Positions 1,136-62,726 of a DNA stretch of 64,000 nucleotides are shown one piece after another. A program made the translations under genes and the position numbers. Source of the DNA: Alphaproteobacteria bacterium. GTDB lineage: Bacteria > Pseudomonadota > Alphaproteobacteria > Rs-D84. The stretch spans positions 2,096-66,095 of the forward strand of contig JAFQOQ010000009.1 in NCBI GenBank assembly GCA_017403085.1. The letters run 5' to 3'. How positions within the stretch are numbered: the stretch's first letter is position 1; each line of letters starts with the position of its first letter. The notes under the pieces were generated by a model that had not been told where the DNA came from, made no database searches, and saw nothing but the letters and a program-made list of their open reading frames with translations.

Positions 1136-4100
1136 TTATTCCATGCTGGTCGATACCACTTCACCATAGGTAGCCACTTCTTCGCCACCGATATAGCAGT
1201 GAATCTTGGACCCGACGTTATCCATGAAATCTTGGATGGCGTCGCGCTTTGCCTTATCAACCGCAGAATCCATGATGCTGTCTGTGACAGTGTATGCCAA
1301 TGCACCACCCGCCACCGCAGTCACCGCCGCGCCGATACCCGCCGCTGCGCCCTTGCTTAGGCCCTTTTTCTTTTCTTCTGTTTCTGAAGATTCCGTAGCG
1401 ATTTCGCATTTTGCCTTTATCGCGTTCAACACGCTAAGGACTTCGCCCTTTTTAGTATCGTATGCAAAATCTCCTAAACATTTAGTTCCTTCAGCAAGGT
1501 CGGTAGAACCACTACCGCAACGCCAGTTGTTGCCTTTTTTCGTTGCTGTTGTTGTTGTTGTTGCAACGTCTGCTGGCCAGGCCGTTACACCCTTTACACC
1601 CATGCTTTCCAGTCTTTTTACAGCGCCAGTTGCATATGTATGGGCCTGGTTCGCTTCGTATGCATTAAGTTGAGTAATTGCAACGTTTGTATATTCTGTA
1701 CATTGTTTTTTCAAATCTGCAAATGATGTCGTCTTTGCTTTCTTTTTGCCGGTCAGGCCGCCCAAAACAGAACCGTCTTGGATACCCGCACCCAGGAACG
1801 CACCACCAACACCGCCACCCACTGCGCCAAGCGCCGTCATCCAGCCACGGATTTTTGGTTGCGATGCCTCTTTATCAGCGGCCGCTTTGTCGCCGGCTGC
1901 GTTTGCCATTTCTTCCAATTTGTCGCTGGGGATCCATGAACCGCATGTGAATGCATCACCCGCAGCAAAGTAACCAACAGACCAATCTGCACCATTAAAG
2001 ATTGCATCTTGGATTGCCTTGTCTTCGGACTGTAATGTCACGCGAACACGGCAGAAAGAACCATATAATTCATTGCTGGCAACAAACTGTTTTGGTGTCA
2101 GACCCGCCACAGAATAATTTGCTGGAACCTTGTTGGATTTCAGTTTAACCCACATAAATGTTGAACCCAAATCATTCTTGCCAACCAGACCACCGTCATT
2201 TGACGACAGACACAGATTCTGCTGTTTGGTCAATTTTGCGTTATATTTCGCCTGGGCCTCGATTTCCAAATCGTAAATCAGGTCTTTGAATAATGTGCTG
2301 GCCGCCTGGGATTCAACATAGGTTGTGTATGCAATCATCACAGGTGTGTCAAACACTGCGCCAGTGCTATCCACTGTATAGCATGGGCCCTGGTCCCCGG
2401 TCTTGGACGAACACAGATTGTTGCCGTTTTCATCAACTGCCTGGACCTGGTCGGTGGTGGCCGCCATCTGGGATGTAGAACCCGCATCAATCCAGCCCGA
2501 ACGGACGTTGTTGGATGCGCCCCAACTGGACTGTTCAGATTTATTCTGCATTGCCAGTTTATTGCGTTCGATTGCCAAGTGTTCTTCGCAAACGTTCGCA
2601 TTTTTAACCGTATCCATACACAGACCCAAGACAATTGTGTAATCTAATACGCCGCCGACCTTGTTCATAGATTTATCAAATGCGGTGTCGCCACTGTTGG
2701 TCAAAGATGAATAGATATCCGTACGATTGCGATAGCAATTCTGGAAATCAGCACCACACAAAGAGCGTACGCAACTGGTTGCGACAGATTGACACTGTTT
2801 CTTCATCTGGGCAATCGCAGCGTCACTGTAATTTGTTGCCAATGCCGCGTTCAATGACGCAACAACGCCAATTGGGTCAGATTCTGCGCCGCCATCATAT
2901 TCGGGGAACAAGATATCAAATGCGTCTGCTTGATTATATGTGTATGCGAACGCGCCCGTTGCACTTGGGTTCTGGGCCGCATATTTACAATTTGCATCGG
3001 TATTAACAATTGCCGCGCATCCTGTTTTGATTTCTTCGCGCGTGTAATCATTATTGATAGATTTGTCTGTGGCACCAAACACCTGGGAATAACATGCCGC
3101 GCCAGAGCCAGACCCGCAAACACGCATTGCGCACGATTTGATTGTGGATACACATTTTTCTTTGGCCTTGGTATCAAATTTATTTACCAAATCTGCAATC
3201 TTGGATTTCATGCCAGAATTCATACGTGATGAATAAGCCTCGCTATAAACTTCGTCCTTGTTGTCTTCGTCCAACAATTGTGACGATGTTGGCATTTTGC
3301 CTTCGCCCAAGAATGTGGCATAGCAGTACTTATTGCCGCCAATTGTATCCAAACAAGAGCCCTTGATATAGGACGCAATTGCAGAACTGCTGATTGTAGA
3401 AATAGCATCTGCACCTTCGGCAACCGCAGTACCGTCGTTAATTGCATCAACGGTTGCAGCCAAACTTTCGGTTGCGTTTTCATAACATCTGTATGGGTTT
3501 GCCGCACATGCGCCCAAGATACAGTTATCAACAACCTTGTAACAGGTCGAAACCGCATTTACCGCCGCCAACGACGCCCCTTCGGCAATCATTTCGCCAA
3601 CACGACTGGTCGCGGTTGGGGATACAGATGCACTGGTGCTGGCGGTGCCGAACAATTCGACCAAGCCGTCACTTTGACATTTGGCCAACGTGGATTCACA
3701 TGCAATACGCTGTTTCTTGAATTCAGAATTTGTTGTACATAATTCAAAATCTGCGCCACAAACACTTTCTTTGCGCAGGCATGAAGAATATCTTTTCACA
3801 CAGGTCGCCGTGTCATATTTATTGGAAATCGCCGCACCTGTAATCATTTGACCCAAGACACTGCCGTCGGTGGGGTATGTGTAATCTGTCACTTCGCCAT
3901 AGGAGTTCTGGGTGGCAACATTTGCCAGGGACGCAGTATTTGATGTGCCAAACAGACTGTTTATACCAGATGACGAACACTGGGCCAACGTTGTTAAACA
4001 CTGGGGCATTTTACCATGAAACAAAACCTTGGTCGTGCATTCTTCGAAATTTTCACCACATGTTTCAGCCGTCTTCATACAGGACGTATATGCATCAATA

Positions 4101-4300
4101 CATTCCATATCGCTTAACAGTGGCGTAGTAGTCGTCGATGACGAAGAACCACCGGTCACACCGTTAATGTACGCCGTCATAGTTGGCATGCGACGCACAG
4201 ATGCATTAGCCATAACACTGGGGCGCGCAGTTGCCGCAAACGCCGCAGGTATTACGCTGAATACAGCCAATAAACTAATTGTGTTTTTCAGAAAAGACAT
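1136..4300 (-). CDS. Giant secreted or membrane-anchored cysteine-module protein, function unknown
   Basis: 1054-aa ORF with signal peptide MSFLKNTISLLAVFSVIPAAFA. C-x6-C-x6-C-x6-C-x12-C-x6-C modules at aa 67-108 and 167-208 (exactly 100 aa apart), each ending LFGT(S/A)xT(A/S)S. Three further C-x6-C-x4-C-x6/7-C modules. Two Gly-zipper hydrophobic segments near the C-terminus. Ser/Thr runs. Confidence 0.8.
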   Translation of the reverse strand: MSFLKNTISLLAVFSVIPAAFAATARPSVMANASVRRMPTMTAYINGVTGGSSSSTTTTPLLSDMECIDAYTSCMKTAETCGENFEECTTKVLFHGKMPQCLTTLAQCSSSGINSLFGTSNTASLANVATQNSYGEVTDYTYPTDGSVLGQMITGAAISNKYDTATCVKRYSSCLRKESVCGADFELCTTNSEFKKQRIACESTLAKCQSDGLVELFGTASTSASVSPTATSRVGEMIAEGASLAAVNAVSTCYKVVDNCILGACAANPYRCYENATESLAATVDAINDGTAVAEGADAISTISSSAIASYIKGSCLDTIGGNKYCYATFLGEGKMPTSSQLLDEDNKDEVYSEAYSSRMNSGMKSKIADLVNKFDTKAKEKCVSTIKSCAMRVCGSGSGAACYSQVFGATDKSINNDYTREEIKTGCAAIVNTDANCKYAAQNPSATGAFAYTYNQADAFDILFPEYDGGAESDPIGVVASLNAALATNYSDAAIAQMKKQCQSVATSCVRSLCGADFQNCYRNRTDIYSSLTNSGDTAFDKSMNKVGGVLDYTIVLGLCMDTVKNANVCEEHLAIERNKLAMQNKSEQSSWGASNNVRSGWIDAGSTSQMAATTDQVQAVDENGNNLCSSKTGDQGPCYTVDSTGAVFDTPVMIAYTTYVESQAASTLFKDLIYDLEIEAQAKYNAKLTKQQNLCLSSNDGGLVGKNDLGSTFMWVKLKSNKVPANYSVAGLTPKQFVASNELYGSFCRVRVTLQSEDKAIQDAIFNGADWSVGYFAAGDAFTCGSWIPSDKLEEMANAAGDKAAADKEASQPKIRGWMTALGAVGGGVGGAFLGAGIQDGSVLGGLTGKKKAKTTSFADLKKQCTEYTNVAITQLNAYEANQAHTYATGAVKRLESMGVKGVTAWPADVATTTTTATKKGNNWRCGSGSTDLAEGTKCLGDFAYDTKKGEVLSVLNAIKAKCEIATESSETEEKKKGLSKGAAAGIGAAVTAVAGGALAYTVTDSIMDSAVDKAKRDAIQDFMDNVGSKIHCYIGGEEVATYGEVVSTSME

Positions 4301-5337: not shown

Positions 5338-5796
5338 CTATCTATAATCACGCCAATCTGGGCCAACGCTGCATTCCGATAAATCAATTATCATTTCGCG
5401 GCCACGATTTTTAACAGGACACGTTAAAATACCCGTTGTTGTCGCCTGGTCTGCATCGCGCGTCGCGTTGCGATACGCAAATTTTAATTCGGTTGGTTCG
5501 GCCACACATGCAATATGCAAATGTTCATGATTCTGTCCATCTGGACCAATCCAAACACGAACACCATAGGCCAGACCATAACACGGAAAACCGTCCAGAT
5601 AATACAATTCCAGACCACGGCCGACCAGTTTTCTATCCTCGACAAAAGTGCCATTATATTCGTTCAGGGTCAGACCCGTCACAGCCTGCCAATCGGTGCT
5701 GGTTGAAAAAATACTGACCCGTGGTTGGGGGGCATCCGCCGCATGTGCAACAAATGTGCAAAAAACCGCAATTGATGCCAGAATATATTTTTTCAT
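5338..5796 (-). CDS. Secreted hypothetical protein
   Basis: Signal peptide MKKYILASIAVFCTFVAHA. No family recognised. Its start overlaps the stop of the zinc-ribbon gene. Confidence 0.6.
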   Translation of the reverse strand: MKKYILASIAVFCTFVAHAADAPQPRVSIFSTSTDWQAVTGLTLNEYNGTFVEDRKLVGRGLELYYLDGFPCYGLAYGVRVWIGPDGQNHEHLHIACVAEPTELKFAYRNATRDADQATTTGILTCPVKNRGREMIIDLSECSVGPDWRDYR

Positions 5797-6317
5797 TATT
5801 TTTTCCCTGTGTTTTGTCCGTCTGCCAAAATGGCGCTGATTTTTTTCACACTGACTGGCGGGATGTTTAAAGTATGCGTAAATTCTGCCACCGCACCCGC
5901 GTCCAGTAATGTCACCGTCGGTAAAAACTTTTGACGACCAACCACATTGTTTTTTTCGTCCTGTAAAACAATGTACAAATCGGGCATTGCGTAAATCGCA
6001 TCAGACTGATTCACGATTTTCCCAGACACGACCAAATGTGTCGCACCATTATCATCGGTCGCAGTTTTGTATTCCGTAATACTGGCAACCAGTGGTTTAT
6101 CCTTGTCCGGGTCGGCATGATATGTAAGCAAAACAACCGCGGTAAATATAATCGCCGCAAATAACGCACATAATGATGCAAAAAATTTTAACCAAACATT
6201 TCGACGTGGCGGTAATGCAACCGTCCATTCATGCCCGCAAACCGCGCATTTCACCGGCGTCGATGGTGCGCCGTCAATATTATATTCAGTCTTGCAAAAG
6301 TCACATTTTATTTTCAT
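5796..6317 (-). CDS. MJ0042-type zinc-ribbon membrane protein (DUF3426-like C-terminus)
   Basis: N-terminal CxxC-x15-CxxC (CDFC..CAVC), one TM helix, beta-rich C-terminal domain. Lies 20 nt downstream of the pilin-like cluster. Confidence 0.7.
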   Translation of the reverse strand: MKIKCDFCKTEYNIDGAPSTPVKCAVCGHEWTVALPPRRNVWLKFFASLCALFAAIIFTAVVLLTYHADPDKDKPLVASITEYKTATDDNGATHLVVSGKIVNQSDAIYAMPDLYIVLQDEKNNVVGRQKFLPTVTLLDAGAVAEFTHTLNIPPVSVKKISAILADGQNTGKK

Positions 6318-6337: not shown

Positions 6338-7657
6338 TTATTCTAAATTCAACAGGCGATATTTACTGCGCACACGAGATTGTATTTCTGTGATTGCATT
6401 CATAAAATCCGCAACCGTTGCGTTTTCGTTTGCTGCGACCGCACCAAACAATTGCGTTGCATATGTCGTGTTGTCACGTTCGTAATAAACCGCCAATTCT
6501 GCCATGCGATTTAATTCTGCAAAAGATGCGTCAGATAAATGTGCCGTCTTGGAATCTACATCCCAAAAGAAATTTGGGTTTGTCGAATCTTCAATGCGTT
6601 CAGATACAATTAAACGGGGCGTAATCGACCCAGTATAACCAACCGTTACAAACATTGCATTTATACGCCCAGCAGTCATATCCAGCGACTGATTAATCTT
6701 CATCAACGCCAAATCGTCGTCTGCACTGATGGATAAACCACCAAGCGTCATATTCGATACCCATAAATTTTCTGCCGCGACAGATGAAAATTTGCCCAGG
6801 TCCGCCAACACAAAAGAACCAGAAACCTCCATATTCTTGGCATCTGATGTCATACTGCCTGCAACAGTTGTGGTTTTGGCATCAAAACGCTTATCCAAGG
6901 TTGTACGTGTGTTAAATATCAGGTTTTGCGTTACGATTTCTGGTGTGATTAACTTTTCGTTAAATTCCGCATAAGCCGCATCAAAGAACGCGACATTTGT
7001 GATATCGTGACCGCCTAAATTTAAGGGCGATAACATTTTGGCATCAGACGCATTTATAGATGGGACACGCCATAAATACAAGGCGTTGTCTTGGCTGATT
7101 GTCGTTGTTTCTATAATTCCGTCTGTTGTATCCAGCCCCAAATCCAATGTATCTGCATGCCACGCACCAAACGTGCCATATGCGTGGGTTCCTTCGACAA
7201 ACCCCATACTGTCGCCACCCATAGATACGATTTCGCGCGTGCGCAATGGCGTTATATCATCTGTTGCACGTACAATTACGCCCTGCAATGTTGCCTGGCC
7301 ATTAACGTCATCTGATTTTAAGACACGCAATTGATATTTGTCGCCAACATTTTCAATTATACCAAGTGGCAATCCATAATCTGTCAGATCCGACAATTCC
7401 ACACGCGTGATATTTTTGCCAACCGTTTTTAATAACTTTTCACGATGCGCAACGATGTATCGTTCCAGCGCAACCTGCACTTCGGTCATTTGATTTGTAA
7501 TCGCAATATTTTCTGCGCGTACGACGGCATTTTGTTGATATCTGAACGCAAACGGTATTATGACCGCCGCCAGCGCAATGCTAAGCAGTAATTCAACCAA
7601 CATATTTCCATGCTGTGAATTTTTAGAAAATAAAAAACATCTGTTATTTGTCTTCAT
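6338..7657 (-). CDS. Giant pilin-like protein P3 (PilV/shufflon-N-like, inferred)
   Basis: Prepilin-type N-terminus ..SQHG|NMLVELLLSIALAAVIIPF. YGLPLGI box. YLWRVPS..KMLSPLNLGGHDITN box. Start set at the ATG at 7657, which gives an ATGA overlap with the P2 stop. Confidence 0.7.
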   Translation of the reverse strand: MKTNNRCFLFSKNSQHGNMLVELLLSIALAAVIIPFAFRYQQNAVVRAENIAITNQMTEVQVALERYIVAHREKLLKTVGKNITRVELSDLTDYGLPLGIIENVGDKYQLRVLKSDDVNGQATLQGVIVRATDDITPLRTREIVSMGGDSMGFVEGTHAYGTFGAWHADTLDLGLDTTDGIIETTTISQDNALYLWRVPSINASDAKMLSPLNLGGHDITNVAFFDAAYAEFNEKLITPEIVTQNLIFNTRTTLDKRFDAKTTTVAGSMTSDAKNMEVSGSFVLADLGKFSSVAAENLWVSNMTLGGLSISADDDLALMKINQSLDMTAGRINAMFVTVGYTGSITPRLIVSERIEDSTNPNFFWDVDSKTAHLSDASFAELNRMAELAVYYERDNTTYATQLFGAVAANENATVADFMNAITEIQSRVRSKYRLLNLE

Positions 7658-8859
7658 CGCGATATCACTGATACAACCGTTGTTTTCCAACCACTGTTCA
7701 TCAGTGGTTTAAATTCGTTTTTGCTGACCGGTGTCGGCAGTTTGGCGCGCGCCAATGTAAAATTCGAAAATTGAGGAGGTTTGGTCGATGGAAATATCCA
7801 CGAACCAATCTTTAACGGCGACGTGGTAGACATCAATAATTCGCCGGAAATTGTTAAACCAAAATTATCATAAAAAATCATTTCTTCGGCAGTCACATAT
7901 GGCGTCATTACAGAATTTACAGTAATGCCTGTAAATCCACTGACGGTTCTGGACGAACTAGATTTCATTATTAAATCATTTGCAACATTTACGCTGCCTG
8001 TGATTTGCGCACGATCGGTGATGATGCGGCCGCTGGTTGTATATCCACGCCCATTCATATCCATCGCATAAATATTTCTGAACCCGGAAACATCACCAGA
8101 TACACGCACCGCACCCAATGTCACATCGTCACTTTCGATTGTCGCACCAGATGAAAAATATACCGTGTTCGCCGCAATGGAATCAGATTCAACAAATGTC
8201 GCGTTTGCGTTTTTTGTTTGGGTCGATTTTGCAGTCAATGTCGCAACATTATAAACGTTATAAGAATTCATATCTAAATCGCGGCCCATAACATTTAAAT
8301 TATCTTCGCCAGATGTTCCACGATGCAGGTATTTAGATGTATCTTCGCCGGCAACATCGCGCGATATTCGGTATATCAAATTACCCGCATTAAATCCAGG
8401 CGCAGACACCGCCCACATATCACCAAATGCAACACCATCGTCACCGACGACCGCTGCATCCGAACCAATATGTTTGGCAATTTGCGATGTGCGCAAATTT
8501 GTATCCTGTAAATCAAATGCCAGATATACATCAGTTATCGCCGCACCATTGACAGTATATTTATCGATAAATCCCGCCGTTGGAAAATCTGAAATCGTCG
8601 CCAATTCTTCATCAGCCAATTTGATTTGCGCGGCGTCTGGCCACTTGTCCTGATTCATACGAACAAAATTTAGCACATTATCACGCGTTTCTGTAATTCT
8701 ATGCGCAACTGCAATATCATGTATTGTTTGATTCGTACGGGCAATCTGGCTATATACAAATGGGGTTGCGGTCGTAACAATCGCCATCGCCAGCAATACT
8801 TCCAACATGCTGGCACCACAGGATTGATTGTTAAAGATTCTAGACGTTATTTTATCCAC
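7654..8859 (-). CDS. Giant pilin-like protein P2 (PilV/shufflon-N-like, inferred)
   Basis: GTG start overlapping the P1 stop (GTGGATAA). ..NQSCG|ASMLEVLLAMAIVTTATPF. YLHRGTSGEDNLNVMGRDLDMNSYNVYN box. Beta-strand-rich C-terminal half. Confidence 0.7.
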   Translation of the reverse strand: MDKITSRIFNNQSCGASMLEVLLAMAIVTTATPFVYSQIARTNQTIHDIAVAHRITETRDNVLNFVRMNQDKWPDAAQIKLADEELATISDFPTAGFIDKYTVNGAAITDVYLAFDLQDTNLRTSQIAKHIGSDAAVVGDDGVAFGDMWAVSAPGFNAGNLIYRISRDVAGEDTSKYLHRGTSGEDNLNVMGRDLDMNSYNVYNVATLTAKSTQTKNANATFVESDSIAANTVYFSSGATIESDDVTLGAVRVSGDVSGFRNIYAMDMNGRGYTTSGRIITDRAQITGSVNVANDLIMKSSSSRTVSGFTGITVNSVMTPYVTAEEMIFYDNFGLTISGELLMSTTSPLKIGSWIFPSTKPPQFSNFTLARAKLPTPVSKNEFKPLMNSGWKTTVVSVISR

Positions 8860-10210
8860 AGTTTCCGTTCCCCGACATTAGACATTGCTTGATATCAATT
8901 CTTTTTTCCAATCTTTGCCAATATACATATTGACAGATTATATACTGAGACAATGACGCCGCATTATACGAGCCTTCTAAATCAGCAATCACAGATTTAC
9001 AATCTATGGTTTTTCCGTCATCTGATTTTGGGTCACTTAAAATTTCAAACGCAGAATTGTTGATTCCAGACACCAAAACATCTGGCAACAATGATGTTCC
9101 CGCCGGTCTGATATCCAATATCACCGCGCCCGTATCACCATCATTAAGCGCAGTTGATGTTTGATCACGCATAGTAATATTTGACGCGTACAAATAAGCA
9201 ACATTTATACCGCTGTTTGAACTGTATTCAAGTGTATCTGCATCTATATACACATCCTGGCCGCGCGTTGCGTTCAAATGCGACGTGATATCCAAGCGTT
9301 CAACACTAAAATTTATCTTGTCTGCCACCAGATTTCCACGAACATTCCACTGACCCGGTCCCGTGAAAGATGTACGCCCAGCAGTCATTGTAAAATCATA
9401 GACCGATACATCTTGGGCCGTGAAATTCCCACCATCGCCAAACTTTGATACGGTTTTTGCATTTACAGAATCTGCGTATAGCACACCGCGCGACAAAGAC
9501 AGTGCAGATGCACCATCATGACTTTGAAATACTGCCTTGGCCGTGGTAATTAAATCAATTGTATTGCGAATTTTACGACCAGATTCAACACCAGATATGG
9601 AAAGCGTATTAAACTGGCCCGAATCAAATACACCTTTTGCAGCAAAAACATTACCACCGTTATCCAACACAAAACCACCCATATCTAAATTTGTTAAGAA
9701 ACCGCTGTTGTCCAGGTCCGGTTCGTTACGTCTGACGATGTCTGAATAAATATCCTGTAATTCTATTCCAATGCGCACATTTTGTTCGTCGGTCACACTG
9801 GCACTAAAACCAATACGCCGCGCCAACTCTGCAATTTCTAGTTCAGATAAATCACCACCACTTAGTTCTAAATACGCCGTAAGTGACATTGGGGTTCTGT
9901 GAATTATTAACGCAATATCCTGGCCCAATGCGGTATGCGGAACAAAACCCAACGGCAGACCGTATGGTTCCAATGTGTCACCAAACGCATTGCCAACAAT
10001 CCTGGTTGTGTCGTACGCCAGATTGTTAATATTTTCACGCACAAATATTTTTGCCGCTGTTTGGGCGGTTTCGACTTGTTTTGTTGTACTGAACATTCGC
10101 GCATCAGTATTGCGCGCCGCCATACGTGTCGCTAAAAACGGCACAAACGCAAAAACCAGAGTCAATGCCAATAATGCCTGTAATAAAAAATTCCCGCGCT
10201 GTTGGTGCAA
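8852..10210 (-). CDS. Giant pilin-like protein P1 (PilV/shufflon-N-like, inferred)
   Basis: TTG start 9 nt after AGGAGG. MHQQRG|NFLLQALLALTLVFAFVPF. YGLPLGF box. IVRRNEPDLDNSGFLTNLDMGGFVLDN box. Cys-rich C-terminal tail. Confidence 0.7.
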   Translation of the reverse strand: MHQQRGNFLLQALLALTLVFAFVPFLATRMAARNTDARMFSTTKQVETAQTAAKIFVRENINNLAYDTTRIVGNAFGDTLEPYGLPLGFVPHTALGQDIALIIHRTPMSLTAYLELSGGDLSELEIAELARRIGFSASVTDEQNVRIGIELQDIYSDIVRRNEPDLDNSGFLTNLDMGGFVLDNGGNVFAAKGVFDSGQFNTLSISGVESGRKIRNTIDLITTAKAVFQSHDGASALSLSRGVLYADSVNAKTVSKFGDGGNFTAQDVSVYDFTMTAGRTSFTGPGQWNVRGNLVADKINFSVERLDITSHLNATRGQDVYIDADTLEYSSNSGINVAYLYASNITMRDQTSTALNDGDTGAVILDIRPAGTSLLPDVLVSGINNSAFEILSDPKSDDGKTIDCKSVIADLEGSYNAASLSQYIICQYVYWQRLEKRIDIKQCLMSGNGNCG

Positions 10211-10659: not shown

Positions 10660-10741
10660 TAAATAACGCGTCAATCGACGCGTTTTATTTGTTGAAATTT
10701 ATACGTGTTTTGCTATGCTGAGAACAAAGGAAGTTTTTAGC

Positions 10742-12304
10742 ATGGATACGAATTATACTGTTTTAGCCCGCAAATATCGCAGCCAAGATTTTAAAAGCCT
10801 TATCGGGCAAGACGTTTTGGTAAAAACATTAACAACTGCAATTAACACATCACGTATTGCGCACGCATATATTTTTACCGGTATTCGCGGGACAGGAAAA
10901 ACCAGTACAGCACGTATTTTGGCCAAGGCCTTGAACTGTCTGTCGTCAGACAAGGCGACCGCATCACCATGTGGGACGTGCGAAAATTGTCGCGCAATTG
11001 CCGCAGGCCAGCATATTGACGTTATGGAAATTGACGCGGCGTCACATACGGGCGTTGATAATATGCGCGATATTCTTGATGCGGCGCAATACCGCCCAAC
11101 AAATGGCCGGTACAAAGTATATATTATCGACGAAGTTCATATGTTATCAACCAGCGCATTTAATGCGTTGTTAAAAACATTGGAAGAACCACCTGCACAT
11201 GTTATTTTCATATTGGCAACAACAGAAATTCGCAAGGTTCCAGTGACAATCTTGTCACGTTGCCAGCGATTTGATTTGGTTCGCGTTCCGGTCGATACAC
11301 TGAAAAAACATTTCGCATGGATTGCGGACCAGGAACAGGTTCAATTATCTGATGCAGCAAACGAATTATTGGCACGTGCGGCAGACGGTTCTGTTCGCGA
11401 TGGATTATCTTTGCTGGACCAGGCAATTGCGCAAACCGGTGGCAATGTTGATGAAGCCGCCGTTCTGGATATGCTTAAACGCGCAGACCGTGGTGTCGTT
11501 GTAGATTTTATGAAGACATTACTGTCTGGTGACGTGGCGGCGGCATTGGACAAGGCAGATACCATATATAACAATGGCGCAGATTTGTCTATGTTGCTGA
11601 CCGACATGATGGAATGGACGCATTGGGCAACACGCATGCACCCAAGTTTGCATGCGGGCGATGTCCAAAATTCACCATACACGGCCGATCAACGGGATCA
11701 GATTTATGATATTATTTCTAAAGTTTCACTGAACGTACTGTCACGCATATGGCAAGTCATGGTCGCATCTGTTTCTGAAATGCAGGCATCCAGCAATCAA
11801 AAACAATGTTTCGATATGCTGGTTGTGCGTCTGATGCATATTGCTGATATGCCATCTGTGCCAGAAATATTGAAGCAGCAGGAATCTGCAAATCGCGCAC
11901 AGTCTGTAAAGAATATCTTGGCCGACCGTATGGCCCAGCCCGCAGCCGAGGCGACACCCATAGCTACAACGTGCGTTATTACATCATCGGGTGATTTGGC
12001 ATGTGCGCTGCAAACAAATAAAGAAATACTGTTGTATTCTTATTACAGCAGCAATATCGAAGTCGCAGAATTTTCAGATGGAAAGATTAAGTACTTTGAC
12101 CGTAAGGGCGACCCAGATTTTGCACATAAATTGTCTGTATGGCTGATGGATAAAACGGGACACGCATGGACACTGGAACGTGTGACGGAATCTGTTAATG
12201 CACACACAGTCAGCGAACAAAAACAAGAAGAACTAGAAGCAGATCCACTGGTTGCCAGTGCGATGAGCCTGTTTGAAAATGCAGAAATAGTTGGGGTGAA
12301 ATAA
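10742..12304 (+). CDS. dnaX: DNA polymerase III subunit gamma/tau
   Basis: GIRGTGKTS Walker A, CGTCENC zinc module, YIIDEVHMLS box. ATG at 10742 is preceded by AAGGAA; an alternative ATG lies at 10715. Confidence 0.93.
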   Translation: MDTNYTVLARKYRSQDFKSLIGQDVLVKTLTTAINTSRIAHAYIFTGIRGTGKTSTARILAKALNCLSSDKATASPCGTCENCRAIAAGQHIDVMEIDAASHTGVDNMRDILDAAQYRPTNGRYKVYIIDEVHMLSTSAFNALLKTLEEPPAHVIFILATTEIRKVPVTILSRCQRFDLVRVPVDTLKKHFAWIADQEQVQLSDAANELLARAADGSVRDGLSLLDQAIAQTGGNVDEAAVLDMLKRADRGVVVDFMKTLLSGDVAAALDKADTIYNNGADLSMLLTDMMEWTHWATRMHPSLHAGDVQNSPYTADQRDQIYDIISKVSLNVLSRIWQVMVASVSEMQASSNQKQCFDMLVVRLMHIADMPSVPEILKQQESANRAQSVKNILADRMAQPAAEATPIATTCVITSSGDLACALQTNKEILLYSYYSSNIEVAEFSDGKIKYFDRKGDPDFAHKLSVWLMDKTGHAWTLERVTESVNAHTVSEQKQEELEADPLVASAMSLFENAEIVGVK

Positions 12305-12762
12305 TGAAGACAGAATCGGGACGTTCTTTAATCGAAGTTATTGGGGTATTGGCAATTGCGGGCATCATGACCGCGGGCGCCATTGGTGGATATAACATTA
12401 TTCGAAAAAGCCAAACACGCACAATTGCAACCACACAAATAAAACAAATTGCCCAAGATGCAAAAATGCTGATGGAAATGCGCGGCTCTTATGAAGGGAT
12501 ATCTATTGATTACCTTATCAAAGCTGGCGCATTAAATTCAAACGTGGCACCAATTGGTGGGGATGCATGGTCCGTTGTGTCCAGTGTAGATGGCGCGTCG
12601 TTCTCGATAAATCTGGTCGATTTAACCCAAAGCGAATGTGACTATTTTACTGCGACAAAGCCAGAGTGGGCAGCCGCAGTTTTAGTTAATGGGTATGAGG
12701 CAAATAATGCGGACGCATGCTTTGAGTCTGCAACAAATCAGGTATCGTTTATCATAGAATAA
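12304..12762 (+). CDS. Type IV pilin-like protein
   Basis: MKTESG|RSLIEVIGVLAIAGIMTAGAIGGY (Gly -1, Glu +5, hydrophobic helix). C-terminal C-x26-C pair. ATG overlaps the dnaX stop (TAATG). Confidence 0.7.
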   Translation: MKTESGRSLIEVIGVLAIAGIMTAGAIGGYNIIRKSQTRTIATTQIKQIAQDAKMLMEMRGSYEGISIDYLIKAGALNSNVAPIGGDAWSVVSSVDGASFSINLVDLTQSECDYFTATKPEWAAAVLVNGYEANNADACFESATNQVSFIIE

Positions 12763-13452
12763 ATGGAACAAGTAAAAATTTGTTTTATAGGGTTCTTGTT
12801 ATGCGCGCTGGGGGCGTGTATGCCATATCACAGTCCAAATCGTGCAACATGGCACACGTATTTAAATGGTGCCAGTTTTACAGACATGACGGAAATATCA
12901 CGTGTTGCAAAGCGACCTGTGTATCTGGGGGCGGGTGGCACATTGGTGACAGCAACCGCAGGCACAGATGCGCCAGCCACCATGGCGTATGGCGACAAGA
13001 TTTCAAACGACAATGCAATCGCAACAAATTATATGGCGAATTTAGAATTCGCGCTGTATGACGCCCTGCGCAAGCCAGGAATATCGGTTCAGCGCGCCGG
13101 CACAGATGTCGTTGTAATATTGGTGCGCGATGCGGTTATGGAATTAAATGTCGCAGACATATCTGAAACTGGTGACGACACACTGAAAACAATTGCAAAA
13201 ATATTAAATAAGTATGACGCAACCTTTATAGAAATCGCTGGATACACCGACGCAATGCGGGACGCAAATGCGGCGCACGCACTATCTATGGACATGGCAC
13301 AACGCGTTGCAGTTCATATGGCCCAGCATGATATTAATACGGCACGTATGTTCATTGTTGGACGTGGGGCCGCGCGCCCAATCGCCGCCCAAGATGACAT
13401 TGGACGTCTGACCAACCGTCGGATAGAATTACGTATTGCGCCGGCACGATAA
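12763..13452 (+). CDS. OmpA-domain lipoprotein
   Basis: Lipobox LGAC. C-terminal OmpA/MotB motif GYTD..NxxLSxxRA..NRRIELRI. ATG directly abuts the pilin stop. Confidence 0.8.
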   Translation: MEQVKICFIGFLLCALGACMPYHSPNRATWHTYLNGASFTDMTEISRVAKRPVYLGAGGTLVTATAGTDAPATMAYGDKISNDNAIATNYMANLEFALYDALRKPGISVQRAGTDVVVILVRDAVMELNVADISETGDDTLKTIAKILNKYDATFIEIAGYTDAMRDANAAHALSMDMAQRVAVHMAQHDINTARMFIVGRGAARPIAAQDDIGRLTNRRIELRIAPAR

Positions 13453-13518: not shown

Positions 13519-14184
13519 ATGGTAAAAAAATCAACAGAAACACCAGTTGTAAAAAACTATAAAAAGACCGGCATTATTGCGGCCATTGTTATCGCAGTTG
13601 CGGCGTTGGGCGTTTGGGCGGTATCTGCACTGAATTCTAATGGCGGCGCATCAGTTGATGAAGCAATGGAAGTTGTTTCAACAGATGCAGTTAATGCCGC
13701 AGATATGCGTATCGCGGTTATTCATATGGATGTGATTCAAAATGATGCCAAGGCTTTGCAAGATTTGCGCAAACAGAAAGAATCGTATGAATCAAAACTG
13801 CGCGATGAATTGACACGCGAACAGAAAGATTTAGAAGCAGAAAAAGCAGAAATCGAAAAATCTCAGGATGTGTTGTCGCGTGATGCGCTGCAACGTCGTG
13901 TTGTCGATTATCAAAACAAGGTCGCAAAATTACAACGTGATTTGACAGAACGCGCACAGAGCATTGAAATGTCTTATCAAAAGGCATTAAATGAAATTCA
14001 GGCAAAACATCTGGACCCAATTATCGAAGGCATTATCGACAAGAAAGATTTGTCATTGGTAATCGATGGCCGCTTTGCACGCACGGGCGCAAATGCAGAA
14101 GGTCTGAATATCACAAACGAAGTTGTTAAGGCGTTGGATAAGAAAGTATCAAGCGCAAAAATGGAAAAGCCAAAAGGCTTTTAA
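13519..14184 (+). CDS. OmpH/Skp-like periplasmic chaperone
   Basis: N-terminal anchor or signal, long coiled-coil K/E/Q-rich core typical of the OmpH family. AAGGA SD. Confidence 0.6.
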   Translation: MVKKSTETPVVKNYKKTGIIAAIVIAVAALGVWAVSALNSNGGASVDEAMEVVSTDAVNAADMRIAVIHMDVIQNDAKALQDLRKQKESYESKLRDELTREQKDLEAEKAEIEKSQDVLSRDALQRRVVDYQNKVAKLQRDLTERAQSIEMSYQKALNEIQAKHLDPIIEGIIDKKDLSLVIDGRFARTGANAEGLNITNEVVKALDKKVSSAKMEKPKGF

Positions 14185-14202
14185 GCAAATTAAATAAAAA
14201 TA

Positions 14203-14228
14203 AACCGCCCCAAATGGGGCGGTTTTTA
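14203..14228. terminator. Bidirectional intrinsic terminator
   Basis: ACCGCCCC-AAAT-GGGGCGGT followed by TTTTT, between convergent genes. Confidence 0.75.
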
Positions 14229-19766: not shown

Positions 19767-22010
19767 ATGGCAGTTAAATTCAACTTTTTATCCGCGTCCG
19801 GCAAAGGAAAGGGATTAGATATATTCAAATCTAGTTCGTATAAAGAGCATGAACGCACCCCAATGGCCCAAATATTTTGGACGATTCGTTGGGCAATACT
19901 AATTTGGATAATTGCGGCACTGATGTTTGCGGCCGCATTTCCGGTTGAACATATATGGCGATATGGTTGGTCACCGGCCACACGACATTGGATTAGTATA
20001 TATCTGCAAAATATGCTGGCCAGTGGGGGGATGTCTGTAATCGCAGAAATCCCATATTGGATTGGACGCAGCATTATGCGTCCTGATTTGGCATGCATAA
20101 CACCGCTGTTGCCAATTATTGGATACTTCTTTTTATCAGACGCAACATTGACCGATGAATTTAACCCGCATGGCAAAGATAAATTTGATGCAAAATCTTC
20201 GAATAAGGCAACCGCGGATGATATTAAAAAAATGGCCACGGACTTCAAAAACAAAGAGGGGTTATTTGGCGGATTTATGATGGTACTGGGGTATTTTAAA
20301 AACAAAGGTAAATCGGTACCACTGAAAATGGATGAATGTTTGTCTGCATTATTATTGGCACCCGCAGGTACCGGTAAAACTGTTGGTGTCGTTATACCTA
20401 CGGTATTGGGGTGTGATAATGTGTCAATGGTTATTAACGACCCAAAGGTTGAATTGGTGCCAAAAACGTCTGCGTATCGCGCAACCGTTGGACCAACATT
20501 TATTCTGAACTGGGCCGAACCAGACAGACCAGAACAAGGAATTTATTATCCGTCTTGGAACCCGTTGTCGCCAGAAAATATGCCGATGGAGGCAGAAGCG
20601 CGAAATACATATATCCAAACAATTGTTAATTCATTGATTGAACATAACGTCAAAGACCCACACTGGTCAAATACAGCGCGTGCGGCATTAACAGGATTTA
20701 TCAACTTTATTATTTCCAAGGTTGAACGCGCCAAGGCAGATGATTATTTCTATCACAGAATAAGCAATGGCACGTTTGACGCAGAAGACGCAGCAGTGTT
20801 GATGGATTATTACCTGACCATGAACAGTAATCCAAACGCATACGCAGCGATTGCATTATTGCAACGTGGGGAATTGAATTCTATGAACTATGTGCATGTC
20901 GGCACATGGCAAGGACTGCCCCAGGATTGGCACGGGGCCGAGGCATCAATCCCAATGTTCCTGGCGTGGTATACCGAAGGACAGATAAAAGTCGCCCAAG
21001 AATTAGAAGACAGACGTCGTCAAGGCGACCAGATGGTAATGATGGCCGACCCAATGAAAGACTTCTTGAACGAAGCAGTTGATGAATCACGCATGTATGC
21101 ATACGACCCGGACGCGACGTCTGCGCTGATTAATTTGGCAAATACACCGGACAAAGAACGCGGTTCTACGATTTCTACGATGAACGCGGGCTTGAATATT
21201 TTCCGCCATCCAGCAATTAACAAGCATACCAGAAGTTCTGATTTTCACTTTTCAGATATGCGCGGAATGATTGACCCGCGTGACGGAAAGTTAAAGCCTG
21301 TGACGGTGTATCTGGCCGTTAATGTGGCAGACGCATCTGCGTTTAGTCAGATTACAAGTATGTTTATTGAACTGCTGTCTAAGTTCTTAATCGCAAACCC
21401 ACCAGACAAGGTTAATAATGGTGAAAAAATGGGGCCGTACCCTGCCCTGTTCGTGTTGGATGAAATGCCAACAATGAATAAGTTAGAAGCGATTATCCAA
21501 GGGCCAGCCGTCGGACGTGGGCAAAAGGTGTCGTACCTGATTGTGGGTCAGGACATCAGTCAGATTGCAGAAAAATATGGCGATAAATCCGCAGATACAA
21601 TTGTGGCGAATACCGCTGCGAAAATTATTCTGCGCGTAAATGATCCAGCGACCGCAGAAAGATTTTCAAAAATGATGGGCAAAAAGATTAAGATGAAGAA
21701 AGGCGCAGACGGCAAGGAAGTGCCTAGCGAGGAAGATTTGTTCAGCCCAATGGATTTGATGACAATGAGTACCGAAAAACAATTGGTATTGTTCCAGGGA
21801 TACTATAATAAACCAATCGAAGCAGACCAGGAAAGATGGTATAGAAACAAATCCCCAATCGAAAAAGAACTGCACGCCAAGGTTATGATGGGGGCAACAT
21901 CACCATTGCCAGAATTTTTGATTCCACAGCATCATCGCGCCTTGCAATACGCCGGGAAACCACGCGTGTATAATCCAGCGACCAAGGAAATTAAAGAACT
22001 GGCACAATAA
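19767..22010 (+). CDS. TraG/VirD4-type type IV secretion coupling protein (orphan)
   Basis: N-terminal TM helices. Walker A LLLAPAGTGKTVGVVIPTVL. Walker B/DE box ALFVLDEMPTMNKL. GQDISQIAEKYG motif. Confidence 0.85.
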   Translation: MAVKFNFLSASGKGKGLDIFKSSSYKEHERTPMAQIFWTIRWAILIWIIAALMFAAAFPVEHIWRYGWSPATRHWISIYLQNMLASGGMSVIAEIPYWIGRSIMRPDLACITPLLPIIGYFFLSDATLTDEFNPHGKDKFDAKSSNKATADDIKKMATDFKNKEGLFGGFMMVLGYFKNKGKSVPLKMDECLSALLLAPAGTGKTVGVVIPTVLGCDNVSMVINDPKVELVPKTSAYRATVGPTFILNWAEPDRPEQGIYYPSWNPLSPENMPMEAEARNTYIQTIVNSLIEHNVKDPHWSNTARAALTGFINFIISKVERAKADDYFYHRISNGTFDAEDAAVLMDYYLTMNSNPNAYAAIALLQRGELNSMNYVHVGTWQGLPQDWHGAEASIPMFLAWYTEGQIKVAQELEDRRRQGDQMVMMADPMKDFLNEAVDESRMYAYDPDATSALINLANTPDKERGSTISTMNAGLNIFRHPAINKHTRSSDFHFSDMRGMIDPRDGKLKPVTVYLAVNVADASAFSQITSMFIELLSKFLIANPPDKVNNGEKMGPYPALFVLDEMPTMNKLEAIIQGPAVGRGQKVSYLIVGQDISQIAEKYGDKSADTIVANTAAKIILRVNDPATAERFSKMMGKKIKMKKGADGKEVPSEEDLFSPMDLMTMSTEKQLVLFQGYYNKPIEADQERWYRNKSPIEKELHAKVMMGATSPLPEFLIPQHHRALQYAGKPRVYNPATKEIKELAQ

Positions 22011-60671: not shown

Positions 60672-61721
60672 ATGGCAACAATAGAAAAGCGCAAGAGTGG
60701 AGATGGTTTTGTTTATCGTGCACGTGTGCGTGTAAAGGGCGCTGAGCCCAGAACAGCGACATTCCCAAATAAGACACTTGCCAAGGCCTGGGCACAGAAG
60801 ATAGAAGTTGAAATCAAAGAAGGGCAGTATATGCCCACTCTGCAATCACAAAAACGCACCCTGGGCGAAATAATCACTATTTACAAAGAAAGACATAATC
60901 CACTATCAATCACAACATCTGGACAGCTGGATGTATGGAACGAACAAATGGGCGCATGCAGTTTAAATATGATAACGCCAGACCGTATCTATAATACACT
61001 AAAAACGATAGAATCTATAACAACACACAATGGACAACCAAAGTCCGCCAGCACATTAAACAGATATTTGGCGGTATTAAGTTCTGCATTAACTTTTGCA
61101 GTTAAAGAGTTGGGGTGGATGCGCGAAAATCCAGCGTTCAAAGTATCACGACGTGCCGAGCCAAAGGGACGTGTCAGATTCTTGTCGGATGACGAACGCA
61201 ACAGATTATTGACCGAGATACAAAAAGCACCAAACCCATTTTTATACCCAGCAGTTATACTGGCGATTTCAACAGGGGCAAGACGTGGCGAGATATTAAA
61301 CCTAAAATGGGCGGATGTTGACTTACATCGTGGCTGGGCAACGCTGCAAGACACCAAAAATGGCGACAGACGTGGTATTGCGTTGCGTGGCCTGGCATTA
61401 GACCTGATGCGCCAACTGTGGGCAAAGAGATTATCTAACATCTGGGTATTTCCAAACGAAACAAACTCTGGACCATTTAATATCAGATACAGCTGGAACA
61501 AGGCGGTTCGTGATGCAAATTTGATAGATTTTAGATTTCACGACCTGCGACACACATGTGCCAGCTATTTAATTATGAACGGTGCATCCCTGGGCGAAAT
61601 CGCAGACGTTCTGGGACACAAAACATTGCAGATGGTGCAACGATACGCCCATATATCAGACAGCCACAAAGGTGGCGTTATTGAACGCATGAATGATAAA
61701 GTTTTCGGAGAATCAAAATGA
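60672..61721 (+). CDS. int: Tyrosine-type site-specific integrase
   Basis: TGARRGEIL (Arg I), HDLRHTCAS (His-x-x-Arg), LGHKTLQMVQRYAH (catalytic Tyr). AAAGGA SD. Confidence 0.92.
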   Translation: MATIEKRKSGDGFVYRARVRVKGAEPRTATFPNKTLAKAWAQKIEVEIKEGQYMPTLQSQKRTLGEIITIYKERHNPLSITTSGQLDVWNEQMGACSLNMITPDRIYNTLKTIESITTHNGQPKSASTLNRYLAVLSSALTFAVKELGWMRENPAFKVSRRAEPKGRVRFLSDDERNRLLTEIQKAPNPFLYPAVILAISTGARRGEILNLKWADVDLHRGWATLQDTKNGDRRGIALRGLALDLMRQLWAKRLSNIWVFPNETNSGPFNIRYSWNKAVRDANLIDFRFHDLRHTCASYLIMNGASLGEIADVLGHKTLQMVQRYAHISDSHKGGVIERMNDKVFGESK

Positions 61722-62386
61722 CACAACAATTACCTTTTGCCGATATTTTTCCACACTTGCATCCAATGCAAAAATTCACACAGCCCAACTATCCAATACT
61801 AGCTGATATTTTATTGGAATACGCACAAGATTTGGCACACTATCGTGAAAACTATCTAGATGAAGACAGAATTGCTAACGCACTGGATTGGATAAAACAA
61901 CATGGCGATTTAGACCATAAAACAATTAAACGCATCATCGAGCATTTTAGCATTCTTGACTTTAAATCAGATGTAAAAATTCAGACCTATAACAAACAAT
62001 GGATTGTATGGTTATTCGTTATTGGTGCTTTCATCCTGATAAATCAAGCAATAGAAAATGACGACATCAATACCGTTAAAAGTGATATTCAAACATGCTT
62101 AAAAAACGCACATGACTATAAAAGATTGTGGGGCGAAAGAAAAGGTCGTTATAAAGGCGCAAGCAAGACAAACGCCAAGAAAGCTGAAATAAAAAAAACA
62201 GTGCTAAAAATAACACGAGAAACAAACAATGCAAACCCCGCCAAATCCGATGATGAAAAACTAATCATCATAAAAAACAAATTTAAAAAAACATCCCCCA
62301 ACAGGGATTTCCCTTACAAAGATTCTAGTTTTACTAGAAACGATGATGCAAACATGTTTGCCCAGGCTGCAAAGCACAAGCCATAA
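61718..62386 (+). CDS. Hypothetical element protein with one TM helix and a Lys-rich tail
   Basis: ATGA overlap with the int stop. WIVWLFVIGAFILI hydrophobic segment. No family recognised. Confidence 0.55.
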   Translation: MTQQLPFADIFPHLHPMQKFTQPNYPILADILLEYAQDLAHYRENYLDEDRIANALDWIKQHGDLDHKTIKRIIEHFSILDFKSDVKIQTYNKQWIVWLFVIGAFILINQAIENDDINTVKSDIQTCLKNAHDYKRLWGERKGRYKGASKTNAKKAEIKKTVLKITRETNNANPAKSDDEKLIIIKNKFKKTSPNRDFPYKDSSFTRNDDANMFAQAAKHKP

Positions 62387-62495
62387 AGCCATCACGCTAG
62401 CGTTATGGGCAACCGCCTTGATAGGCGGTATTTTTGCATATATATTTGCCATGAACCCGCGGGCAAACCATAACCAAAAACCTAAGGAGAAAACA

Positions 62496-62726
62496 ATGGC
62501 AAATATGACGCCCAACTTTAAAACCATTCGGCAATTTGCTGAATCATATCCTGCATTTACGCAGGGCTCGCTGCGTGATTTGGTGTTTTATGCGGACTAT
62601 AACGGATTAAATCAATTTGATGCAATCCGTCGTGTCGGCGCAAAAATACTAATAAACGTTGATAATTTCTTTCGGTGGGTTGATACCAACCCTGCAAGCA
62701 AAGGAGGGTTAAATGCAAGAATTTGA
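62496..62726 (+). CDS. Excisionase/AlpA-like small DNA-binding protein (tentative)
   Basis: 76 aa from the ATG at 62496 after TAAGGAGA. ..RRVGAKILINVDNFFRWV resembles the Xis/MerR-type winged HTH C-terminus. Confidence 0.45.
   Translation: MANMTPNFKTIRQFAESYPAFTQGSLRDLVFYADYNGLNQFDAIRRVGAKILINVDNFFRWVDTNPASKGGLNARI

Follow-up and report, generated by a model that had tools for sequence, protein, structure and literature searches.

Three coupled PilV-like prepilin genes of a probable type IVb pilus in the reduced genome of Candidatus Enterousia

The stretch of DNA analyzed here, a window of 64,000 nucleotides from contig JAFQOQ010000009.1 (assembly GCA_017403085.1) of an alphaproteobacterium of the lineage Rs-D84, carries three tandem open reading frames (ORFs) on the minus strand, P1, P2 and P3, which are probably three fixed minor pilins of the PilV family that belong to a type IVb pilus of the R64/IncI/PAPI-1 type encoded on the chromosome of Candidatus Enterousia (Table 1). 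The ORF list places the genes exactly where a preliminary description of the sequence had put them, and the TTG start of P1 with its AGGAGG ribosome-binding site, the quoted N-terminal strings and both sequence boxes are present as given there. The stop of P1 and the GTG start of P2 overlap by 8 nucleotides (GTGGATAA), and the stop of P2 and the ATG start of P3 by 4 nucleotides (ATGA), bearing out the gene coupling that had been proposed. The three translationally coupled genes lie in one tight operon with a gene for a ZitP-like protein, which begins 20 nucleotides past the P3 stop. The databases hold 850–960 homologues of each protein (963 for P1), all unnamed or "hypothetical" and with zero precomputed Pfam domains; P1 is 100% identical to a hypothetical protein of a metagenome-assembled genome labelled "Alphaproteobacteria bacterium".

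Each of the three proteins starts in the manner of a class III prepilin, as had been noticed: a short polar leader whose last residue is Gly precedes a hydrophobic helix of some 20 residues that has Glu, or Gln in the case of P1, at position +5. The strength of this pattern became apparent in three conservation alignments, one per protein, each consisting of 121 rows (the protein of the window and 120 database homologues). Gly-1 was found in all leader-bearing rows (120 of 120 for P1), and Pro+18 was invariant across the three alignments (121 of 121 for P1). Position +5 was Gln in 121 of 121 rows for P1 and Glu in 121 of 121 for P3, and for P2 it was Glu in 118 and Asp in 3 of the 121, a degree of conservation far beyond chance. 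Among the orthologues the leader sequence drifts and the mature N-terminus is fixed; an invariant Gly-1 and Glu/Gln+5 next to a freely drifting leader make up the signature of peptidase recognition and filament packing, as is to be expected for prepilins, rather than that of a simple membrane anchor. Minor pilins of the GspK type lack Glu5, and by its sequence the Gln+5 of P1 belongs to this known type of exception, that of the apex minor pilins. The NCBIfam models gave only weak matches at the N-termini, GspI for P2 (E 0.012) and ComGG among P1–P3 (E 0.21).

A different explanation for these N-termini is that P1–P3 are pilin-derived type II membrane anchors, exposed at the surface or in the periplasm and independent of any pilus machine. 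The standard pilin hidden Markov models (HMMs; N_methyl and the TIGR02532 type) are silent on the three proteins, the residues at +1 (N, A and N/S) are unusual for prepilins, and a search of the window, the 10 kb beyond it and about 100 related loci turned up no peptidase. Some gene callers moreover start P3 at MLVELL (420–421 amino acids), although most of its database homologues include the leader (437 amino acids). The invariant Gly-1 and Glu/Gln+5 beside a drifting leader, the co-occurrence of a pilus machine in the genus, which two species encode on one contig with the trio, and the linkage to a ZitP-like pilus-biogenesis factor nevertheless make free-standing anchors very unlikely.

The preliminary description had likened the central box of the three proteins to the constant N-terminal region of IncI1-type PilV adhesins, and this lead proved right, in a manner that a direct family search does not reveal. 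Scans of P1–P3 against Pfam, NCBIfam and PHROGs returned no significant family. We therefore turned to profile–profile comparison, using a strict PilV profile built from IncI1 PilV, taken from the fetched IncI1 pil operon, and its six direct phmmer relatives. The match obtained with hhalign was 99.1% for P3 (E 5.7e-19, 227 columns), 98.0% for P2 (E 1.4e-13, 257 columns) and 88% for P1 (E 3.1e-6, about 193 columns), and it climbed to 99.7%, 99.0% and 96.4%, respectively, when two intermediate sequences were added to the PilV profile. The likeness covers the first approximately 230 residues, and the central box of P1–P3 aligns with the LYR...LN.M.T.IDMG.N.I.N motif of PilV. An independent phmmer search with IncI1 PilV matched orthologues of P2 and P3 directly (E ~3e-4 among 10,204 ORFs). 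Thus the proposed check by profile HMMs gave a divided answer, with the Pfam pilin and Shufflon_N models silent and the profile–profile comparison with PilV significant. By these comparisons, P1–P3 are true, remote homologues of the PilV family that lie beyond the reach of the Pfam model. Their size, which had been called giant, is ordinary for this family, as IncI1 PilV has 474 amino acids.

The Pfam model Shufflon_N (PF04917) misses even the close relatives of P1–P3 (P0361–P0411), and only more distant intermediates match it (P0478, E 3.7e-21; P0493, E 4.7e-46). The P3 profile, run against 1.84 billion representative proteins, yielded only 186 clusters, which share the N-terminal 230–280 residues in proteins of 400–1600 amino acids. 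Nearly all full-length cluster members have N-termini of the form G....E, some of them the canonical G|F(S/T)L(I/L)E; among the distant members Shufflon_N was detected in 16 of 69 (best E 4e-69) and N_methyl in 3 of 69. When P3 was compared by tblastn with 72,556 plasmids (7.3 Gb) at E up to 10, the only matches were three pilV genes of Ralstonia. Nine of the relatives (P0457, P0467, P0470, P0476, P0479, P0484, P0485, P0499 and P0505) carry the same PilV-like N-terminal module in proteins of 900–1600 amino acids, with N-termini of the form G|S(M/L)M(V/I)EA and very long C-terminal regions. Pfam domains seen in distant relatives include bactofilin-like repeats in two and a phage tail-collar domain in one, and P0493 has a weak bactofilin match.

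Orthologues of P3 with 50–69% identity were identified in 80 assemblies in a scan of GTDB species representatives, all labelled Candidatus Enterousia or unclassified Alphaproteobacteria and derived from ruminant, horse, chicken and human gut. The gene order P1-P2-P3-ZitP-152aa-RluD, in which the last two stand for a gene for a secreted protein of 152 amino acids and an RluD-like synthase gene, is kept in every locus that reaches that far, among 84 loci from 81 assemblies. About 80 species share P1, P2 and P3 as a fixed set of orthologues with even conservation. Their descent from one another is real, though weaker than had been stated: the mutual BLASTP E-values are 4e-6, 1e-5 and 9e-4, hhalign gives 97% for P2–P3, 87.5% for P1–P3 and 50% for P1–P2, and the likeness is limited to the N-terminal 60–260 residues. 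The C-terminal halves, described as divergent, indeed differ between the paralogues, but among the orthologues they are as conserved as the N-terminal ones, so that conservation is uniform along each protein. This uniformity rules out hypervariable adhesin tips. In summary, each protein consists of a conserved prepilin N-terminus, a constant N-terminal module of the PilV type, about 230 amino acids long, and a C-terminal region of its own.

A common PilV module followed by different C-termini mirrors the constant-plus-variable design of a shufflon (PMC9045228), which is an argument for three alternative adhesins, one of the three being used per pilus and the set serving as a static substitute for the shufflon with three fixed specificities. 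A panel of this kind had been suggested before, and its hard-wired, non-shuffling character is supported by the genomic evidence. No family of sfx-like repeats was found in the window, as had been reported. A lone inverted pair of 21 nucleotides (6377–6397 and 8985–9005, 19 of 21 complementary) connects the coding sequences of P3 and P1 at their 3' ends and occurs in this species only (the window and loci L001–L004); it is at background level in 21 other species and is probably due to chance. The statement that the 64 kb hold no Rci-type recombinase is correct for the vicinity of the genes, although a tyrosine recombinase (Phage_integrase) is encoded at 60672–61721, in a mobile element 50 kb away. 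With no repeat family, no conservation of the lone inverted pair and no adjacent recombinase, variation by a shufflon or by DNA inversion is ruled out. The panel itself fits poorly with the remaining data. Translational coupling implies co-expression rather than a choice among the three, every locus that spans the trio keeps its order, with C-terminal halves conserved to the same extent as N-terminal ones, and the N-terminal modules are highly diverged, down to the 50% seen for P1–P2. The distinct Gln+5 of P1 further suggests non-equivalent structural roles. Taken together, alternative use of the three proteins appears unlikely.

Structure prediction was no more than suggestive of a pilin fold, which the preliminary description had suggested looking for. 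For P2, an AlphaFold2 model based on a mixed alignment of 132 P1, P2 and P3 sequences reached predicted local distance difference test (pLDDT) values of 80–91 at residues 15–170, where a 55-residue alpha1 helix (18–72) is followed by five strands, a pilin-like topology; beyond residue ~170 the pLDDT was below 50. The model of P3, built with 31 close homologues, had a pLDDT of 39.8. In both models the C-terminal regions, which had been said to look beta-helical, have pLDDT values below 50, and the bactofilin matches of the distant relatives are the only hints of such a fold. The evidence for a pilin fold of the N-terminal part of P2 is suggestive at the level of the model, with the helix and beta-sheet predicted and no significant match to a pilin when the model was compared with the PDB. 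Sequence searches of the PDB with P1, the P3 profile, IncI1 PilV and the small pilin described below found no usable structure, the sole pilin match being the N-terminus of a Geobacter pilin (E 0.07), and no PilV structure for comparison was among the results.

The three large genes are not the only pilin-like genes at the locus. A motif scan of the window revealed a fourth, located 2 kb from the P1–P3 trio and directly after dnaX, the product of which has an ordinary pilin size (152 amino acids) and the N-terminus MKTESG|RSLIEVIGVLAIAG. The pattern M..ESG|RSLIE is kept across 65 distinct sequences of orthologues, with Glu+5 in every sequence shown, as is the pattern C...NCF near the C-terminus. 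The NCBIfam matches are weak and exclusively of pilin type (ComGE, 0.003; GspH, 0.07; prepilin-peptidase-dependent protein, 0.09). The protein has no annotation in public records and no Pfam match. As the major pilin of the system, this protein is the obvious candidate. Its gene is followed in the same direction by genes for an OmpA-like lipoprotein and an OmpH-like protein, which may possibly be tied to the pilus; the dnaX-pilin-OmpA-OmpH block remains intact even where it is relocated (L013, L076 and L084).

The absence of pilus machinery had been a premise of the preliminary description. We scanned with Pfam about 55 ORFs of the window, that is, all but a few of those of at least 150 amino acids, and covered the remainder by precomputed Pfam hits. 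In the 64-kb window, these scans found no assembly ATPase, platform protein, secretin or A24 peptidase, in agreement with the earlier view, and the ORFs that could be named comprise housekeeping genes, one for a coupling protein of the VirD4 type and, at the far end, those of a mobile element. A further 10 kb past the window contained only the mobile element and an autotransporter. What had been overlooked is the conserved small pilin gene, and the notion that the large genes are orphans is wrong, as the small pilin lies 2 kb away and an R64-type machine is present in the same genus. In two Candidatus Enterousia loci (L041 and L063), a single strand carries dnaX, the 152-residue pilin, the OmpA-like and OmpH-like genes, PAP_PilO (PF06864), a PilP-like protein and a T2SSE ATPase, on the same contig as P1–P3. 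The ATPase matches R64 PilQ with E 1.9e-39, and the PilP-like protein scores 45 bits against TIGR03021, for which the cut-off is 34.65. Seventeen metagenome loci (L086–L102) encode PilO and whichever downstream genes the contig spans; the longer ones show the order lipoprotein-PilO-PilP-ATPase-GspF-like platform, with the platform gene on 10 of the 17, and their ATPase has 78–86% identity to that of L041. In these loci pilO-pilP-pilQ(-pilR) is located between lpxK/lpxC with a small lipoprotein gene and gyrB, and a VirB4 gene lies ~8 kb upstream. The order pilO-pilP-pilQ-pilR is that of R64, and the components that define the R64/PAPI-1 type, PilO (PF06864), PilP (TIGR03021), the PilQ ATPase and the PilR platform, are all encoded in the lineage and none of them in the window. 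The gene content indicates that the lineage possesses an R64-type type IVb machine whose genes are dispersed; gene dispersal is common in reduced genomes. With R64-type PilO, PilP, ATPase and platform proteins in the genus, a new pilin-anchored surface fibre, the other proposal made from the sequence, is not needed. Searches by phmmer with R64 PilN, PilU, PilS, PilL and PilM gave zero matches in any related locus.

The same machine could in principle serve a different purpose. If P1–P3 were pseudopilins of a short periplasmic pseudopilus, they would form a cap equivalent to GspK-I-J, and PilO/P/Q/R would drive secretion or DNA uptake. The ATPase and the platform protein score best against the GspE and GspF models, P1 lacks Glu+5 as GspK does, the N-terminus of P2 resembles that of GspI, albeit weakly, and no secretin was seen that could separate a pseudopilus from an extended pilus. 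An organism without most transporters must also scavenge, according to a genome survey (PMC12306168). On the other hand, the accessory proteins fall into the R64 type IVb class (PF06864, TIGR03021) and not GspL, GspM or GspC, and the nearest relatives of P1–P3 are the PilV adhesins of extended thin pili. The conserved small pilin has a pair of C-terminal Cys residues typical of filament-forming pilins, and P1, P2 and P3 all have C-terminal domains of at least 200 amino acids, which is large for a cap in the periplasm. These features render a pseudopilus improbable.

The gene following P3, present in 84 of 84 loci, encodes the ZitP-like protein, which is recognized by Pfam as DUF3426 (27.9 bits, cut-off 27.7) and Zn_ribbon_4 and by NCBIfam as TIGR02098. 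In Caulobacter the DUF3426 domain of ZitP is required for pilus biogenesis (PMC5182063). The protein found here has the same three-part architecture as ZitP of Caulobacter crescentus (zinc ribbon, transmembrane segment and DUF3426), but it is shorter (173 versus 311 amino acids) and its Pfam score is only at the threshold; furthermore, ZitP of Caulobacter serves the Tad/Cpa (type IVc) pilus and has PopZ and CpaM as binding partners, whereas here the gene is in an operon with type IVb-like minor pilins. The ZitP-like gene shares one base with the next gene, which encodes the secreted protein of 152 amino acids (5338–5796). This protein is syntenic in 84 of 84 loci and belongs to no family in Pfam, NCBIfam or PHROGs; from its operon position only, we infer that it is part of the pilus system. 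It is followed by the RluD-like synthase gene and then by the gene for a Cys-rich protein of 1054 amino acids. In 69 of 84 loci the latter gene lies co-directionally downstream of the P1–RluD genes; its product has no Pfam match and may also be exposed at the surface.

Several observations concern the wider neighbourhood. Besides the hairpin that closes the pilin block, strong GC-rich hairpins were found at 10665–10684, closing a DUF4167 gene, and at 1099–1122, closing the gene for the 1054-residue protein; two of the three are symmetric, so that transcription from either direction could end there. Apart from these three hairpins, scans of the window for promoters and terminators gave counts no higher than those of shuffled controls. 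A VirD4/TraG-type coupling protein of a type IV secretion system (T4SS) is encoded alone among housekeeping genes at 19767–22010 (+), and T4SS genes, as the pilus genes, appear scattered around the genome. An IncI-type (Dot/Icm-like) T4SS as the partner of the pilus is ruled out, since the nearby T4SS genes are of the VirB4/VirD4 type. A probable integrated mobile element is found after mnmG, at 60672–63777 (+) of the window and at 11156–16688 of L103, and contains a tyrosine integrase, an ORF of 222 amino acids, an AAA_25 protein and a Bro-N protein, followed by an autotransporter of 791 amino acids.

Table 1. Features of the P1–P3 locus and of the associated pilus genes. Coordinates are those of the window unless a locus is named.
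Feature	Size (amino acids)	Coordinates	Strand	Evidence and remarks
P1, PilV-like minor prepilin	452	8852..10210	-	ORF; leader MHQQRG, mature N-terminus NFLLQ..., Gln at +5
P2, PilV-like minor prepilin	401	7654..8859	-	ORF; GTG start; G|ASMLE junction, Glu at +5
P3, PilV-like minor prepilin	439, from ATG at 7657	6338..7657	-	ORF; G|NMLVE junction, Glu at +5
AGGAGG ribosome-binding site of P1		10225-10220	-	Sequence read; 9 nucleotides upstream of TTG start 10210-10208
Pilin-like protein of ordinary size, candidate major pilin	152	12304..12762	+	MKTESG|RSLIEVIGVLAIAGIMT; two C-terminal Cys; directly after dnaX
OmpA-like lipoprotein		12763-13452	+	Pfam, NCBIfam; co-directional with pilin gene
OmpH-like protein		13519-14184	+	Pfam, NCBIfam; co-directional with pilin gene
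Strong hairpin terminator		14202-14225		Closes pilin block; GC-rich, flanked by T or A runs
ZitP-like bitopic protein	173	5796..6317	-	N-terminal MJ0042-type zinc ribbon, one transmembrane segment, periplasmic DUF3426
Conserved secreted protein	152	5338..5796	-	Sec signal peptide (MKKYILASIAVFCTFVAHA); one base shared with ZitP-like gene
Sec-secreted protein	1054	1136-4300	-	Repeated C..Y..C......CG..F..C motifs; Gly-rich transmembrane-like C-terminal segments
pilO-pilP-pilQ		L041 1-3384 and L063 1-3327	-	Same contig as P1–P3

Assuming that P1–P3 are minor pilins of the R64-type pilus, the following sequence of events can be envisaged. A prepilin peptidase encoded elsewhere would remove the short leaders, and the PilO/P/Q/R machine would build a filament of the small pilin. 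P1, P2 and P3, made in a ratio of ~1:1:1, would form a priming or tip complex with P1 at the apex, which never has Glu+5, similar to GspK in type II secretion and its equivalents in type IVa pili. The distinct C-terminal domains would bind a constant partner surface, be it a host cell, another microbe or mucus, and such binding would matter for an organism without the tricarboxylic acid (TCA) cycle, respiration and most transporters. Three invariant PilV C-termini would thereby take the place of one that is varied by DNA inversion. We favour a tip or priming complex over alternative adhesins because of the translational coupling, the retention of the trio, the non-equivalent N-terminal modules and the invariant Gln+5 of P1. 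By analogy, attachment of a dependent bacterium to its partner is plausible, because the PilV adhesin selects recipients in IncI plasmids and in PAPI-1 (PMC9045228 and PMC5297154).

A number of results weigh against this interpretation. At E up to 1, P1–P3 match neither Shufflon_N nor N_methyl (PF07963) and TIGR02532, more than half of each structural model is of low confidence, and the Foldseek comparison of the P2 model with the PDB returned no pilin (best E 0.097). The PilOPQR genes are unseen in 74 kb of this genome and adjoin the locus in only 2 of 80 species, and the 17 metagenome loci were placed in the lineage solely by the similarity of their Pil proteins. Neither a prepilin peptidase nor a secretin turned up in the window, the following 10 kb or the roughly 100 related loci, so that processing of the leaders and passage through the outer membrane are presumed. 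In the Enterousia genome surveys consulted, type IV pili are unreported for Rs-D84; one of them records no flagella and refers to such pili solely in a different lineage (PMC12306168). Finally, the heterotrimer, its location at the tip and its role as an adhesin are matters that we infer. An extended version of the proposal is no more than tentative. It would have a plasmid-type thin pilus, similar to those of R64 and PAPI-1, domesticated in the core genome of a host-dependent gut alphaproteobacterium of <1 Mb, with three obligate PilV paralogues replacing shufflon variation and forming a heterotrimeric tip with the Glu5-less P1 at the apex. A ZitP-like polarity factor would place this tip complex, which would be the main device for attachment to the partner and perhaps for feeding or DNA exchange, given the VirB4 and VirD4 genes nearby.

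The closest known counterpart is PilV of IncI1 and IncI2 plasmids (R64, TP114; PF04917), the shufflon-encoded minor pilin and tip adhesin of the conjugative type IVb thin pili of IncI plasmids (PMC9045228). It is of the same size class (400–475 amino acids) and has a Gly-ended leader, Glu+5, a homologous N-terminal module of ~230 amino acids with YGLP-type and LYR...LN.M.T.(I/L)DMGG.xIxN boxes and a separate C-terminal region; genes of the PilO, PilP, PilQ and PilR types accompany it, as they do in the lineage studied here. The plasmid protein falls within the Pfam model, whereas the proteins described here are chromosomal, encoded among housekeeping genes and too diverged for Pfam. In the plasmids there is one gene with swappable 3' ends, in contrast to three complete tandem genes without rci, sfx repeats or invertible segments, and a single pilI–pilV operon, in contrast to dispersed machinery outside any transfer operon seen here, although T4SS genes of the VirB4 and VirD4 types are nearby. 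Two further differences are the Gln+5 of one paralogue and the attached ZitP-like gene. PilV2 of the conjugative type IVb pilus of PAPI-1 and of integrative conjugative element (ICE) type in Pseudomonas aeruginosa, which binds the lipopolysaccharide of recipient cells (PMC5297154), is likewise a non-shuffling PilV-family minor pilin that works with an R64-like machine. It is encoded by a single gene in a mobile island and serves conjugation, whereas the genes analyzed here are three core-genome paralogues in an organism of <1 Mb.

Other known tip complexes offer looser parallels. GspK-GspI-GspJ of type II secretion constitute a three-subunit filament tip in which GspK lacks Glu+5, and CofB and TcpB of type IVb pili, large minor pilins with a pilin domain and beta-rich C-terminal domains, form homotrimers of one gene product; CofB is located at the pilus tip (PMC9045228). 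P1–P3 resemble the former in comprising three subunits, one of them without Glu+5, with stoichiometric co-expression, although the complex is hypothetical in our case, and the latter in being large minor pilins, albeit encoded by three genes. Neither group has detectable sequence kinship to P1–P3 beyond the N-terminal helix, where the GspI match noted above is found.

Type IVb pili that carry a large minor pilin are well known, and what is found here is a divergent variant of such a system. Its family context is broader than expected from existing models, as the PilV/Shufflon_N family stretches well past Pfam detection and includes relatives of 400–1600 amino acids with varied C-terminal domains. 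The trio represents a natural case in which three fixed paralogues stand in for variation by DNA inversion. Candidatus Enterousia and the order Rs-D84 are widespread and uncultured in the gut, with genomes of <1 Mb and no obvious capacity for independent living. Enterousia has a reduced genome of 0.75–1.0 Mb, lacks the TCA cycle, respiration and standard transporters and has a dependent lifestyle (PMC12306168); pili do not appear for these bacteria in the surveys consulted. For these organisms, about 4 kb of conserved "hypothetical" genes can now be assigned to PilV-family minor pilins, with a candidate for the major pilin and an R64-type machine in the genus. The PilV-like trio, the small pilin and this machine together provide a concrete candidate for how Enterousia may attach to a partner.

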